This document shows, piece after piece, positions 8,188 through 14,011 of a stretch of 64,000 bases of DNA; within the stretch, counting starts at the first letter, position 1; every line of letters begins with the position of its first letter. The position numbers and the translations under genes were made by a program. The stretch is from an uncultured Solirubrobacterales bacterium (GTDB lineage: Bacteria; Actinomycetota; Thermoleophilia; Solirubrobacterales; Solirubrobacteraceae). The DNA is taken from positions 298,947 through 362,946 of the forward strand of contig CAWJYE010000008.1 of NCBI GenBank assembly GCA_963847055.1, in the 5' to 3' direction. The notes under the pieces are model-generated. The model was given only the letters and a program-made list of their open reading frames with translations, searched no databases and had not been told where the DNA came from.

Positions 8188-8673
8188 CTACCGGATCCGG
8201 TCGGCGCTGTCCACCGCTTCGGCCCTGTCGGGGGGGACCCTATCCGGCTCGAGCTCCCAGGTCGGCAGGTCGGCCAGCGCCTGGCGGTAGCGGCGTTTGT
8301 AGACCGGACGCAAGAACATCGACCAGGTCGTCGCGCCCAAGGCGACCACGACGAGACCGCCGAAGGCGCGCCCGGCGATGATGAACGCGACCACGCACAC
8401 GAGCGCCACAAGGCTGATCGCGATCGGCACCCGCCGGAAGCGCAGCTGCGTCCGGCGAATCTCGGCGTATTGCTCGATCGGAATCCGCGCCGTGTTCCAG
8501 ATCCGCCCACATTGCTCGCACGCCCAGCGCTCGCCGTAGTGAAGGTATCGGCGCTCACCGCACTCACAGGTGATCGTGATCGGAGGCCCGCGCCGAACCG
8601 ACCTGGGAACCGCCACCGGGTCGTCGTCCCTGGCGAGGGAGCCCAGAGCGCCGTCGGGGCTGCCGGCGCGCAT
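8188..8673 (-). CDS. Hypothetical protein: zinc-ribbon-like CxC...CxxC followed by two TM helices
   Basis: TCECGERR...WACEQCGRIW, then two hydrophobic segments. ATG at 8673 overlaps the upstream TAA (TAATG). Confidence 0.7.
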   Translation of the reverse strand: MRAGSPDGALGSLARDDDPVAVPRSVRRGPPITITCECGERRYLHYGERWACEQCGRIWNTARIPIEQYAEIRRTQLRFRRVPIAISLVALVCVVAFIIAGRAFGGLVVVALGATTWSMFLRPVYKRRYRQALADLPTWELEPDRVPPDRAEAVDSADRIR

Positions 8674-9119
8674 TAGTGCGCCGGGGGCTCCCAGCCCTCG
8701 AGCACGCTGCGCTGATAATCGGTCCCCACGGTCCGTGAGTCTTGCACCCACGGCCCGAGCTCGGGCTGCGGGAACTTGCAGTGCTGCTCTTTCAACGCGA
8801 TCCCGTAGGAGTTGCCCGACTGCAGGTGGCAGATCAAGACCTTGCGGGCGATCTCGTCCTCGCGCCCCGCCGGGATCGCGAAGTAGATCTTGATGAACGC
8901 GTTTGAGTAGCGGTCAAACACCGCCGGCACCCCGTCCTCGCTCAGCAGAACCACGTCCTCGAGCCAGTTGAGGTCGGCCCCCGGGGTAGCCGCGTTGAGG
9001 TCGATGTCCGACACCAGGCCCAGGTCTTCCTGGTAGGGAAAGCGCTTGCCCGACAGATATTCGGCGTCGATCGAGAACACCTTCTCGGGCTCAGAGAGAA
9101 CACGTCTCACCTCAGTCAT
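8673..9119 (-). CDS. Hypothetical soluble protein (148 aa), translationally coupled to mgsC
   Basis: Non-repetitive, globular-looking composition. ATG overlaps the mgsC stop (ATGACTGA). No motif recognised. Confidence 0.75.
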   Translation of the reverse strand: MTEVRRVLSEPEKVFSIDAEYLSGKRFPYQEDLGLVSDIDLNAATPGADLNWLEDVVLLSEDGVPAVFDRYSNAFIKIYFAIPAGREDEIARKVLICHLQSGNSYGIALKEQHCKFPQPELGPWVQDSRTVGTDYQRSVLEGWEPPAH

Positions 9120-10569
9120 GGACGCGCGCCCCGTCGCCCGCGCGCTGCGCGTCAGGCTCTAGATAGTCGATCGGGTTCTCGATGTGGCGCTCGAGCAGAC
9201 GCTCGATCCGGGCCAGGGTGCGCTCCTCCGAGACGCCGGGGATGTAGTCGGTGCCGGCCAGCGGGACGCGGGCCATGGCCGACGCCTCGACGGTCAGCGC
9301 GCACAGATCTTCGGGCTCGAGGCTGTGCACATCGGTCTTGCCGCACGCTCGGGCGAGCATCTGGCACTCCAGGGTCAGCGTGTGGAGGAAGTTGTAGACC
9401 CGGTCGGCGGCCTCGTCGACCACCAGCCGCCGGCGCAACTCGGGGTCCTGGGTGGTGATCCCCACCGGGCAACGCCCGGTATGGCAGTGGTAGCACTGGC
9501 CCGCGGGCACGCCGATTGTCCCCTCGTAGTCGGTGACGCCGGGGATCTCCTTATTGCAGTTCAGGGCCATCAGCGCCGAGTGCCCGATCGCGATAGCGTC
9601 GGCGCCGAGCGCCAGGCACTTGGCCACGTCGCCACCGTTGCGGATCCCCCCGGCCACCACGAGGTCGATCTCATCGACCAGCCCTACGTCTTCCAGCGCC
9701 CGGCGGGCTTCCGGGATCGCCGCCATGAGCGGAATCCCGGTCTCCTCGGCCGCAGTATGAGGGCCGGCGCCGGTCCCGCCCTCGGCGCCATCGAGGTAGA
9801 TGACATCGGGGCCGCACTTGGCGGCCATCCGCACATCGTCGTAGACCCGCGCCGCCCCCAGCTTGAGCTGGATCGGGATCTCATAGTTGGTCGCTTCCCG
9901 GACCTCTTGGATTTTCAGCGAGAGATCGTCCGGACCGAGCCAATCCGGGTGGCGGGCGGGCGAGCGCTGATCGATTCCGGCCGGTAGCGAGCGCATCTCG
10001 GCCACCTGCTCGGTCACCTTCTGGCCCATCAGGTGGCCGCCCAGGCCAACCTTGCAGCCCTGACCGATGAAGAACTCACACGCGTCCGCGAGCATCAGGT
10101 GATGAGGGTTGAAGCCGTAGCGGCTCTGGATCACCTGGTAGTACCACTTGGTCGAGAGCTCGCGCTCGGGAGGGATCATCCCGCCCTCGCCCGAGCAGGT
10201 GGCGGTACCGGCCATCGAAGCGCCCTTCGCCAGCGCCATCTTGGCCTCCAGCGAGAGCGCGCCGAACGACATACCGGTGATGTAGATCGGGATGTCGAGC
10301 TCGATCGGCTTGGCGGCAAACCGGCCGCCGAGCACGGTCTTGGTTTCGCATTTCTCGCGGTAGCCCTCGATCACGAACCGCGTCAGGGTGCCGGGCATGA
10401 ACATCAGCTCGTCCCAGTGGGGAATCTTCTTGAACATCGAGAAACCGCGCATCCGATAACGGCCAAGCTGTGACTTGACGTGGATGTCATCGATGACCTC
10501 AGGCGTGAAGATCCGGGAGTGTCCGAGGACGTTGTGGGCGCTCGGTGCGTTCTCGTCGGCAGTTGGCAT
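9112..10569 (-). CDS. mgsC: N-methylglutamate synthase subunit C (FMN-binding glutamate synthase family, GlxD-like)
   Basis: ITGMSFGALS, CSGEGG, GQGCKVGLGGHL, DQRSPARHPD, DGAEGGTGA, CYHCHTGRCPVGITTQDP. GGAGG RBS before ATG 10569. Follows mgsAB. Confidence 0.88.
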   Translation of the reverse strand: MPTADENAPSAHNVLGHSRIFTPEVIDDIHVKSQLGRYRMRGFSMFKKIPHWDELMFMPGTLTRFVIEGYREKCETKTVLGGRFAAKPIELDIPIYITGMSFGALSLEAKMALAKGASMAGTATCSGEGGMIPPERELSTKWYYQVIQSRYGFNPHHLMLADACEFFIGQGCKVGLGGHLMGQKVTEQVAEMRSLPAGIDQRSPARHPDWLGPDDLSLKIQEVREATNYEIPIQLKLGAARVYDDVRMAAKCGPDVIYLDGAEGGTGAGPHTAAEETGIPLMAAIPEARRALEDVGLVDEIDLVVAGGIRNGGDVAKCLALGADAIAIGHSALMALNCNKEIPGVTDYEGTIGVPAGQCYHCHTGRCPVGITTQDPELRRRLVVDEAADRVYNFLHTLTLECQMLARACGKTDVHSLEPEDLCALTVEASAMARVPLAGTDYIPGVSEERTLARIERLLERHIENPIDYLEPDAQRAGDGARVHD

Positions 10570-10580
10570 TTTCTGACCTC

Positions 10581-11402
10581 CTAGAGGACGAGCTTGCGCT
10601 CGGAGGGTTCGAGCGAGTCGTAGTTGTAGAGCTTCTTGCCGCACACGAACTTGGTGAAATGGGGCGGGGAGCCGAGCTCGTAAATGGAGAACTTGCGCTC
10701 GATCAGCTCGGTGTCGGCGTCCGTCCACTCCCCTTCGACGCAGTCGACGCCCAGTGACTTGACCTGGCCGGCGACGTAGATCTCGCCGTCGTACATCGAG
10801 TCGCCCAGCCCCGGTCCCACGTCGCCACACAGGATCTGGCGTCCGCGCTGCATCATGAAACCGGTCATCGAGCCGGCATCGCCGAGGGCGATGATCGTCC
10901 CGCCCTTCTGATCGATTCCGGTTCGGGCCCCGACCCGGCCCTTGATCACGAGGTCGCCACCGCGGATCGCGGCCCCGGTGAGCGAGCCGGCGTTGGAGTC
11001 GATCACCACGACCCCCGACATCATGTTTTCGCACGCCGACCACCCGACGCGGCCGGCGATGTGGACCTCAGGCCCGTCGATCATCCCGAGGGCAAAGTAG
11101 CCCAGGCTTCCTTCGAAGTTCAGCCGGCAGCGTGTGAGCAGGCCGGCGCCCAGCGAATGGCGGGCCCCTGGATTGCTGACCGTCACCTCGCGCACGCCCT
11201 GCTCATAGAGGAGCCAGCGCAGCTCGAGGTTGATCTGCCTGGTGGTGAGCTCGCGGGCGTCGAAGGTTGCCGAGGCGCCGTCGATCTGCGCCACGCGCGG
11301 AACGCGGGCGTCGAGCTCGACCAGCCCGCGGGCATCGAAGCGGGGCTCCTCGGGTGACGGGTACGAGTTCGGGGACGGGGTCCCCGTGGTCACCGGGTCC
11401 AT
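10581..11402 (-). CDS. mgsB: N-methylglutamate synthase subunit B (GXGXG/FwdC-like domain, GlxC-like)
   Basis: Repeated GxGxG beta-helix motifs (GRVGWSACENMMSG, GRVGARTGIDQKGG, GFMMQRG, GDSMYDGEIYV). Lies between mgsA and mgsC. Confidence 0.88.
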   Translation of the reverse strand: MDPVTTGTPSPNSYPSPEEPRFDARGLVELDARVPRVAQIDGASATFDARELTTRQINLELRWLLYEQGVREVTVSNPGARHSLGAGLLTRCRLNFEGSLGYFALGMIDGPEVHIAGRVGWSACENMMSGVVVIDSNAGSLTGAAIRGGDLVIKGRVGARTGIDQKGGTIIALGDAGSMTGFMMQRGRQILCGDVGPGLGDSMYDGEIYVAGQVKSLGVDCVEGEWTDADTELIERKFSIYELGSPPHFTKFVCGKKLYNYDSLEPSERKLVL

Positions 11403-12370
11403 ACCATCACCGTGCTCTCATAGGGGTCATAGGTCTCGATCTCGCGATCGATCACGGCTCGAATCGCCATCTCCTCGGAGGCCAGCGCGACCATGTCGTC
11501 GCCCTCGTAGAGAACCAGCGGCTTGGCGGCGAGCTCGTCCTTGGCCACGCCCAGCGCGTCCTGCGAGACACAGATGTAGGTGAAGACCCCGTCCAGGTCC
11601 TCGAGGCTGTGATGCATCGCGTCCTCCAGCGATTCTCCCGCGGCCATCCGGTCGGCCAGGTAGACGGCGATGATCTCCGAATCGCACATCGATGCGAAGC
11701 GGTGGCCGCGGGCCTCCAGACGCCGGCGCCACTGGTGGTAATTGGTCAGCTGGCCGTTGTGGACGACGGCGACGTCGGAGAACGGGTACGCCCAGTAGGG
11801 ATGCGCGTTGGCGATGTCAACATCCGATTCAGTGGCCATGCGCACATGGCCGATGCCGTGCGAGCCGAGGTAACCGTCGAGCTGGTAGGCGCTCGAGACC
11901 GTCCGCGCGTCCCCGAGATCCTTGACGATCTCGAGCGAGTGACCGAGTGACAGCACCTCGGTGTGCGGGACTGACTCGACGTGGTCAGCGAGCGTCTTGA
12001 GGTCACCCGCGTAGGCGACGGTGGCCGTGAAGGTGTAGTCGTTGGCGTCCTCGGTGCGCATGATCTCCGCTCCCGCCGCCCTCAGTCGCGCCTGCACCTC
12101 GTGGCGCCGGCGCCGGACGTCACCGGCGAAGTCCAGATCGCGGGCTGCGGTCGACTCGGCCAGGTTGATACGTACGGTCAGCTCCTCGCTGGGAGCGTGG
12201 TAGAGCGCGAACCCGGTCGAGTCCGGTCCGCGATGCTTCATCGACTGCAACATGCTGGTCATGTCACGGCCGATCCGGTGGGGTGTCTGAGCTGGCTCCG
12301 GCCGGTGGGACGGATGGGAACCAATTTCACCACTGCCGTTGCGGTAGATGATCCCGGCGATTCCGCACAT
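11390..12370 (-). CDS. mgsA: N-methylglutamate synthase subunit A (class II glutamine amidotransferase, GlxB-like)
   Basis: N-terminal MCGIAG, HRGPDSTG, GHVRMATES, AHPYW, VHNGQLTN, CDSE, DGVFTY. AGGAG RBS. Confidence 0.88.
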   Translation of the reverse strand: MCGIAGIIYRNGSGEIGSHPSHRPEPAQTPHRIGRDMTSMLQSMKHRGPDSTGFALYHAPSEELTVRINLAESTAARDLDFAGDVRRRRHEVQARLRAAGAEIMRTEDANDYTFTATVAYAGDLKTLADHVESVPHTEVLSLGHSLEIVKDLGDARTVSSAYQLDGYLGSHGIGHVRMATESDVDIANAHPYWAYPFSDVAVVHNGQLTNYHQWRRRLEARGHRFASMCDSEIIAVYLADRMAAGESLEDAMHHSLEDLDGVFTYICVSQDALGVAKDELAAKPLVLYEGDDMVALASEEMAIRAVIDREIETYDPYESTVMVWTR

Positions 12371-12400: not shown

Positions 12401-13858
12401 TTAGGGCAGCACCTCGAGGTACTCGTCGCGTTCCCAGTCGGTCACGGCGGCGAGGTAGCGCTCCCATTCATCCCGCTTGTAATGGTTGAAGACCTTGTAG
12501 AGGCGACCCGGCATCGCGCTGCGGATGACCTCGTCGGCAGCCAGCGCCTCGAGCGCCGCGCCCAGGCTGTCGGGCACCTTTTCGATCTTCGCCCCCTGCT
12601 GGAGCAGGTCATAGGTGTTGCCCTGCTGTGGCGGCCCGGGATCAAGCTCACGGCGGACGCCGTCCAGACCGGCCCGGAGGAGCGTCGCCACGGTCAGATA
12701 CGGATTGCAGGACGAGTCGACGCCGCGATACTCAAATCGGCCGCCCGAGGCTACGCGCACCGTGGTGGTGCGGTTCTGCCAGCCCCAATTCTTGTAGATC
12801 GGAGCCCAGAAGCCGGTGTCCCACATCCGGCAGTAGGAGTTCACGGTCGGGTTGCCGACGCACATCAGGGCGGGGAAGTGCTCGAGCATGCCGCCGAGGA
12901 AGTGGCGCGCGAACTGAGACAGCTGGGCCGGACCCTCGGGATCGTGAAAGACGTTGTGTCCGTCCTCGTCCATGAGCGTGAAATGGTGATGGTGCCCATT
13001 GGCCGATACGCCGGTGAACGGCTTGGGCATGAACGAGGCCAGCAGGTCGTGCTTGCGAGCCACCGCCGCGCACACCTGGCGGTAGGTGGTGATGTTGTCG
13101 GCCGTGCGGAGCGGACGATCGAAGCGGAAGTTGAGCTCGAGCTGACCGGGGGCGTCCTCGTGGTCGCCGTAGCTCATGTCGAGGCCGAGCGCCTGTCCGT
13201 ATTGCACCACGTCGAGGAGCACGGGGCGAAGCTCCTCGAACTGGTGGATGTGGTAGCAGTAGGGCTTGGTCACGCCCTGCGGGATCTCGCCTGCCTCGGG
13301 TCGCTTGAGCCACATCATCTCGGGCTCGATCCCGATCAGGAACTGGCATCCGAGCTCCTGCTCGAAGTCGTGGGCGACCGCCTTGAGGTTCTGGCGCGGG
13401 TCGGCGTCCAGCAGCTCGCCGGTCTCGGTGTCGTAGCAGTCGCAATAGACGCGCGCGACCCGGCTGTCCCACGGCAGCACCGCGAAGGTGTCCAGGTCGG
13501 CGACCGCGGCCAGCTCTGATTCCTCGGGGCCGAAGCCGATGTAGTTGCCGTAGCGGTCGGTGAACAGGTTCGCGGTCGCGCCGTAGACGAGCTGGTAGCC
13601 CTTCTCCGCCACCTGTGCAAAGAAGGTCGACACAACGCCCTTGCCCATCACGCGCCCGGTGATCGAAACCTGCTGAAAGAAGACGTAGCGGATGCCCTCG
13701 GCCTCGATTCGCCGAGTCAGCTCCTCGATCTTGGCCGCTCGCCCCGGGGCGTTGCGGGCTTGCTCGAGCGTCGCGGGGGCCGGCTCAATCCGCGGCGAGG
13801 CGAGCACCGTCTGGACGTCGCCTCCGAACACAACCTCGTCTTGCCCAGCTGTCTGCAT
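12401..13858 (-). CDS. gmaS: Gamma-glutamylmethylamide synthetase (glutamine-synthetase-like amine ligase)
   Basis: GIEPEM, HEDAPGQLE, MPKPF..NGHHHH, NRTTTVR, RFEYRGVDSSCNPY. The flap motif is GFWAP (Trp instead of the Glu of GYEAP), typical of amine ligases. First gene of the mgsABC operon, with a GAGGAG RBS. Confidence 0.78.
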   Translation of the reverse strand: MQTAGQDEVVFGGDVQTVLASPRIEPAPATLEQARNAPGRAAKIEELTRRIEAEGIRYVFFQQVSITGRVMGKGVVSTFFAQVAEKGYQLVYGATANLFTDRYGNYIGFGPEESELAAVADLDTFAVLPWDSRVARVYCDCYDTETGELLDADPRQNLKAVAHDFEQELGCQFLIGIEPEMMWLKRPEAGEIPQGVTKPYCYHIHQFEELRPVLLDVVQYGQALGLDMSYGDHEDAPGQLELNFRFDRPLRTADNITTYRQVCAAVARKHDLLASFMPKPFTGVSANGHHHHFTLMDEDGHNVFHDPEGPAQLSQFARHFLGGMLEHFPALMCVGNPTVNSYCRMWDTGFWAPIYKNWGWQNRTTTVRVASGGRFEYRGVDSSCNPYLTVATLLRAGLDGVRRELDPGPPQQGNTYDLLQQGAKIEKVPDSLGAALEALAADEVIRSAMPGRLYKVFNHYKRDEWERYLAAVTDWERDEYLEVLP

Positions 13859-13880
13859 CCCCACTCCTCGCCTCGCACGC

Positions 13881-14011
13881 TTGACTGGACAAATTGGTAC
13901 ACGTGGCGTTATACCAAGCGCTCGTCGCGACCGCAAGCGGCGAGCTTGACCCCAGGCAGGGGACGGGCTACGCTATTGCGCTGTCCCCAATTCCGTTGCA
14001 CTATAGGCAAC
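13881..14011. promoter_or_regulatory. Divergent gmaS/mgdA control region with inverted repeats
   Basis: TTGGTA-N12-TACCAA (13894-13917), imperfect palindrome TGGACAAATTGGTACA (13886-13901), GTTGC-ACTATAG-GCAAC (13995-14011). Confidence 0.5.

Follow-up and report, generated by a model that had tools for sequence, protein, structure and literature searches.

A conserved 148-residue protein as a candidate fourth component of a divergent N-methylglutamate synthase-like enzyme

We analysed a 64,000-nucleotide stretch of DNA (the window) from an uncultured Solirubrobacterales bacterium. It encodes a 148-residue protein of an unnamed family, orf148, which is present wherever one of two clades of mgsC (clade A) is present and was not found where the only mgsABC set is of the canonical type. 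We favour, with a probability of about 0.55, the reading that orf148 forms the lineage-specific fourth component of an N-methylglutamate (NMG) synthase-like enzyme that is divergent and consists of four proteins. This enzyme would be made up of an MgsA-like amidotransferase, an MgsB-like GXGXG protein, an MgsC-like FMN protein with an Fe-S motif, and orf148, and would capture amines together with the GS-like ligase encoded next to it. We infer that orf148 would be a stoichiometric subunit on the Mgs core, where it might stabilise or gate the enzyme or take part in its chemistry; its candidate contacts are the C-terminal tail of MgsC, the Fe-S-cysteine face of MgsC, or MgsB, and the invariant C-terminal tail of orf148, with a His at its end, may insert into the partner.

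The orf148 gene and its neighbours

The orf148 gene runs from 8673 to 9119 on the minus strand and, according to the ORF listing and translation, starts with ATG and encodes 148 aa. The protein is acidic (pI 4.7, 16.7 kDa), and its translation contains both of the strings quoted earlier, CHLQSGNSYG and HCKFPQPELGPW. The ATG (9119-9117) and the TGA of the mgsC-like gene (9114-9112) give an overlap of 8 nt (ATGACTGA), which confirms the overlap with the mgsC stop that had been described for this reading frame. Codon-position GC is 0.64/0.39/0.88 (GC1/2/3), and in comparisons with nine orthologs the differences at third positions are two to three times those at positions 1 and 2, with synonymous differences in excess. 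The third-position and synonymous excess, together with this composition, indicate a coding sequence under purifying selection, and judged by these signals orf148 is a real gene, more than a chance ORF.

Four consecutive genes lie upstream on the same strand. The GS-like (gmaS-like) ligase (12401-13936, minus strand; PF00120, E 3e-94; start codon uncertain) is gene 1 of a conserved five-gene order. It is followed by an mgsA-like class-II (Ntn, MCG...) amidotransferase (11390-12370, minus; PF13522; 33% identical to Paracoccus MgsA), an mgsB-like GXGXG subunit (10581-11402, minus; PF01493; 37% identical to Paracoccus MgsB), and the clade A mgsC-like FMN subunit (9112-10569, minus; ~485 aa; PF01645, E 3e-91), whose ATG at 10569 lies 11 nt past the mgsB stop. 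The occurrence of PF00120, PF13522, PF01493 and PF01645 in consecutive genes matches the gene set of MgsABC plus a GS-like ligase. On the other side, a gene for a protein with a Zn-ribbon and two TM segments (8188-8675, minus) is coupled by its start to the orf148 stop, the TAA of orf148 and the ATG of this gene having one base in common (TAATG); the Zn-ribbon motif is CxC...CxxC. A TMADH-like flavoprotein, etfBA and an Fe-S oxidoreductase are also encoded downstream of orf148 in the window.

Synteny and the two mgsC clades

A scan of one genome per species gave at least 593 confirmed orf148 loci, the best 80 of which are all in Thermoleophilia-type MAGs (Solirubrobacterales, Gaiellales). We combined these best 80 of at least 593 with eight loci from genome samples, of which six belong to other families that lie outside the class of the window. 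The resulting set of 88 loci covers Solirubrobacterales, Gaiellales and three further families sampled from outside that class, and the locus counts that follow refer to this set of the best 80 plus 8. By tblastn with the window proteins, the order gmaS-mgsA-mgsB-mgsC-orf148 was found in every locus with upstream sequence (86/86). Likewise, orf148 comes directly after a clade A mgsC in 86 of the 88 loci, and the other two begin at contig ends. The gap from the mgsC stop to the orf148 start has a median of -4 nt and is mostly -4, -8 or -1. orf148 is always on the same transcript as mgsC and start-coupled to it.

The genes 3' of orf148 vary between loci, with a SoxB-like flavoprotein next in some. 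A homolog of the Zn-ribbon/2-TM gene is found directly 3' on the same strand in 27 of the 88 loci (best 80 plus 8) and elsewhere in the locus in others; this gene is a variable, looser companion and not a fixed part of the unit. In seven loci (L028, L029, L036, L038, L050, L083 and L085) mgsC and orf148 lie in one frame with stops of a single kind between them, one stop codon in six loci and two TGA in L038. Read-through of these stops would yield a natural MgsC-orf148 fusion.

We also used orf148 and the window MgsC as queries against two genome samples, one from the phylum (401 genomes) and one from the class (301 genomes). Across both samples, clade A mgsC with orf148 adjoining was found in 39 genomes, and clade A mgsC lacking orf148 in none; in one further genome, orf148 lies 367 nt from the contig start. 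Clade B mgsC alone, with orf148 absent, was found in 15 genomes of these samples (including one, G174, flagged unpublished), and clade B is the second mgsC copy in most orf148 genomes, that of the window included. Clade A MgsC proteins in the genome samples are 84-93% identical to the window MgsC and 84-96% identical within the clade; for clade B, identity to the window MgsC is 51-58%. No orf148 was detected among 72,556 plasmids, though 257 of them encode an MgsC homolog. The earlier note had made its case depend on co-occurrence with mgs or tmd genes: the link to mgs was borne out by these counts, and the link to tmd was not, with a TMADH-like gene (>55% identity) within 10 kb of orf148 in only 9 of the 88 loci (best 80 of at least 593, plus 8). 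All of the co-occurrence of orf148 with clade A may be traceable to one ancestral gain, in which case the counts are not independent events. Within the window's genus the orf148/clade A island is patchy, being carried by two of five genomes, which suggests gain and loss of the island.

The window genome carries a second mgsABC set ~22 kb past the window end (G000:C8:384837-387800, corresponding to L090 9347-12323), with its clade B mgsC at G000:C8:384837-386135 and without orf148. This set adjoins genes for a DUF294/CBS/cNMP protein, an amino-acid permease, a PucR-type regulator and another GS-like protein. Its MgsA, MgsB and MgsC are 54/62/76% identical to those of Paracoccus, compared with 33/37/55% for the window set against Paracoccus aminophilus pAMI6. 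This lower identity marks the window mgsABC as the more divergent paralog, and at these values the window set does not qualify as an ortholog of the proteobacterial mgsABC of known methylamine users. Most clade B sets are 45-54/55-64/67-76% identical to the Paracoccus aminophilus proteins; the exception is that of L094 (genome G133), which at 35/40/56% is no closer to Paracoccus than clade A. The label mgsC in the earlier note is thus right as to the FMN glutamate-synthase domain (PF01645) and needs qualifying as to orthology, the window protein being a divergent paralog (55% identical to Paracoccus MgsC, against 76% for the second copy in the same genome). Its proposal of a fourth NMG-synthase subunit or an assembly factor fits with the 86/88 adjacency, the coupling and the co-occurrence with one mgsC clade, provided that the enzyme itself is taken as a divergent paralog of NMG synthase.

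Clade A MgsC differs from the canonical protein in two further features. It keeps the three cysteines of the glutamate synthase (GltS) [3Fe-4S] cluster, aligned to C1166/C1172/C1177 of the genome's own GltB, and has a fourth Cys in an 18-aa insertion, with the motif region ALNCN...QCYHCHTGRCPVG (window 9112-10569, minus strand). Cysteines at the GltS cluster positions were found neither in Paracoccus MgsC nor in three of the five copies compared from clade B; the remaining two, L094 (G133) and L091, have the full motif and part of it, respectively. Based on these ligands, clade A MgsC-like proteins probably bear an Fe-S cluster, whereas a redox-neutral NMG synthase should need none. In addition, clade A MgsC continues for 35-50 aa beyond the VPLAGTxxIPG motif at which canonical MgsC ends. 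This tail (window 9112-9260, minus strand) is conserved and predicted to be helical, and it is present in all clade A proteins and absent from Paracoccus and clade B; we consider it a candidate docking element for orf148. The MgsC-like protein of G133 (L094) has the Cys motif and neither the tail nor an accompanying orf148. Both features of clade A MgsC, the Fe-S ligands and the tail, could serve a partner. The clade A MgsA-like and MgsB-like proteins (window 10581-12370, minus strand) exceed Paracoccus MgsA and MgsB in length by ~30-45 aa, through an insertion past the N-terminal Cys region in the former and an N-terminal extension in the latter, so that with the MgsC additions all three core subunits carry lineage-specific extras.

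Conservation, structure models and alternative roles of orf148

A word-indexed search returned 7,886 protein homologs of orf148. The best 120 of these are 65-95% identical to it, all but one at 77% or more, and those that have names are all called 'hypothetical'. When 1.8 billion cluster representatives were searched exhaustively with phmmer, 186 matches were obtained, which form one tight family plus frameshift chimeras; inspection of the 186 revealed no distant relatives and no genuine fusions. Fused forms such as P0125, P0132, P0150, P0181 and P0195 were rejected as chimeras that arose by frameshift in error-prone assemblies. Identity is lowest for the member P0129, at about 65-69%, and the Neff of the family is 1.7 (hhalign). 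Searches of Pfam-A and NCBIfam gave no family for orf148 at E <= 0.01, and five members of the family gave only chance matches at E <= 10, UreE_N (0.18) and Lsr2 (0.099), each in one member. Nothing below E 0.47 was found in the PDB by sequence or profile (phmmer, hmmsearch), and the matches in the ESM Atlas were confined to unnamed or phage clusters (<= 0.90, with few shared features). The assignment to a known unrelated family that would have spoken against the earlier note was not found in the Pfam, NCBIfam and PDB profile searches.

orf148 is strongly constrained along its whole length. Among 205 unique sequences, conservation reaches 98% or more at 63 of the 148 positions; H98, D55, D69 and S104, the last within the invariant GNSYG, are conserved in all 205, and the C-terminal residue (H148) is His in 204. 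The invariant features comprise NWLED, AVFDRYSN, H98, GNSYG, QPxLGxW, GWE and the C-terminal His. The segment singled out earlier as distinctively rich in His and Cys is there, with its strings and an invariant H98, but its cysteines are not conserved: in the 205 sequences, C97 is Cys in 19, and C114 is Cys in 131 and otherwise Ala or Thr. Because C97 and C114 are not conserved, the idea of a His/Cys metal site in orf148 does not hold.

An AF2 model of the orf148 monomer from 19 sequences has a pLDDT of 62, with residues 20-105 reasonable and the C-terminal 43 below 50. In a comparison of this poor model with 48,161 PDB chains (VIA-align), the best match had a Z of 3.3. We also modelled MgsC and orf148 tethered to each other, as the read-through translation of L038 (TGA=W) with a 91-row alignment. 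In this fused model, residues 21-140 of orf148 form a block with pLDDT 77-96, while pTM is only 0.55. The last 40 residues of orf148 go from pLDDT 34-40 in the monomer to 81-88 in the fused model, but the fused run also had a deeper orf148 alignment, so contact with MgsC cannot be credited with the gain. In structural comparison, the MgsC part fits the FMN domain of GltS (Z 25 over 322 residues, rmsd 3.5 A), and fold searches that used the fused model as query (pdb, pdb_via, viral) are dominated by TIM-barrel matches to this part. The structural alignments to GltS end at residue 436-444, and because they stop near residue 440, orf148 does not take the place of any GltS domain. An 82-sequence orf148 alignment compared with the genome's own GltB gave a probability of 0.1% (hhalign), which speaks against the idea that orf148 is a split-off GltS domain.

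Distances between orf148 sequences over 63 loci correlate with those of MgsB (r 0.62), MgsA (0.56), MgsC (0.50) and GmaS (0.37), which gives weak support for association with Mgs, the loci being non-independent. The partial correlation with orf148 is highest for MgsB (0.38) and about zero for MgsC, and the latter counts against a fourth subunit. Covariation between the tail types of MgsC and orf148 was rejected as evidence of contact, as it follows lineage with no independent switches.

The co-occurrence and coupling data would also fit if orf148 were a dedicated assembly or maturation factor that acts transiently, for example in Fe-S or FMN loading of the MgsC-like protein or in assembly of the split subunits. 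orf148 is confined to the MgsC clade in which the Fe-S cysteines are retained, and like many chaperones it is small and acidic. We nonetheless think such a factor unlikely, as orf148 has no conserved Cys, no nucleotide-binding motif and no match to a known maturation family, the mgsC-like gene of G133 (L094) has the Cys motif yet no orf148, and the start-stop overlap speaks for synthesis in equal amounts, as is more typical of subunits. Many of the invariant residues (D55, D69, H98, S104 and H148) are polar and would also suit an active site, which again counts against the fourth-subunit reading. Such conserved polar residues are dense in orf148, and with the GxSxG-like G102-N-S104-Y-G106 they could belong to a small independent enzyme or ligand-binder for a pathway intermediate, for example a GNSYG-serine hydrolase with His and Asp, that is co-expressed with the Mgs proteins and not bound to them. 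At 148 aa, however, the protein is too small for an alpha/beta-hydrolase, GNSYG lies between two helices in both models with no strand-turn-helix elbow, and there was no match to a hydrolase or other family, nor a fold match better than the Z of 3.3. The window pathway also has no obvious gap for another enzyme, since gmaS-like, mgsABC-like and mgd-type genes are all there, and we regard this role as improbable, to much the same degree as that of a maturation factor.

A small, acidic protein encoded at the operon end beside variable neighbours might instead be a regulator or sensor of the operon or the enzyme, such as an inhibitor or activator responding to amine or nitrogen status. As orf148 has no DNA-binding or known signalling domain, and such regulators are not usually coupled in translation or so highly conserved over their whole length, we consider this distinctly less probable than either of the foregoing roles. 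The position of orf148 in the window, between mgsC and the TMADH-like gene, is what favours an accessory of TMADH/DMADH or a formaldehyde- or DMA-handling protein, the latter having been put forward in the earlier note. With mgsC always adjacent and a TMADH-like gene nearby in just the 9 loci, a TMADH-, DMA- or formaldehyde-handling role is not supported; orf148 is, furthermore, unlike Fae, Gfa or any other family, and we find this role very improbable indeed.

Returning to the reading of orf148 as a fourth component, a more specific and rather doubtful version would have it dock on the Fe-S face of MgsC with its His tail inserted. This would give a four-subunit, redox-gated amine:glutamate enzyme with a chemistry or substrate unlike that of classical NMG synthase, and a second amine-assimilation route that is widespread in soil Actinomycetota. 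If this docking were true, that route would be an unrecognised one.

Significance and comparison with known systems

Work on proteobacteria has led to NMG synthase being treated as an enzyme of three subunits, and to our knowledge there is no solved structure of it. Our literature search brought up no relevant work on a fourth Mgs subunit or on NMG genes in Thermoleophilia. Together with related Actinomycetota, Thermoleophilia rank among the most abundant bacteria of soils, and the turnover of methylated amines in soils is annotated by means of gmaS/mgs marker genes. Should orf148 be a true subunit, this annotation misses a component, and it may lump together two enzymes of different properties. 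About 7,900 sequences of the orf148 family exist without a database family name, and orf148 is a precise marker for telling the two types of mgsABC apart.

Canonical MgsABC with GmaS (the glnT-glxBCD type) is known, for example, from Paracoccus aminophilus pAMI6 and Methyloversatilis universalis FAM5 (PMC5023235). The window resembles these systems in gene set, domain order and amine-catabolism setting. The canonical sets, however, have three Mgs proteins and no orf148, both at the Paracoccus locus and at 257 plasmid loci, whereas the window set has orf148. Canonical MgsC is likewise without the Fe-S Cys ligands and the C-terminal tail, both of which clade A MgsC has.

With the alpha subunit of glutamate synthase (GltB/GlsF; PDB 1ea0, 1ofd), the MgsC-like protein shares the FMN domain and the three [3Fe-4S] cysteines. 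GltD or ferredoxin docks on glutamate synthase at the face of the Fe-S cluster, a precedent for a separate partner at this position. orf148 itself is unlike GltD and ferredoxin, in that it has no conserved Cys or nucleotide-binding motif, and it resembles no part of the GltB sequence (the 0.1% by hhalign) and, in the fused model, superposes on no GltS domain. The delta and gamma subunits of sarcosine oxidase and NMG dehydrogenase are likewise small, operon-encoded proteins that belong to multi-subunit amine enzymes and whose roles came to be recognised late. They have no sequence or profile similarity to orf148, which, in contrast to them, is tied to synthase and not to dehydrogenase genes.
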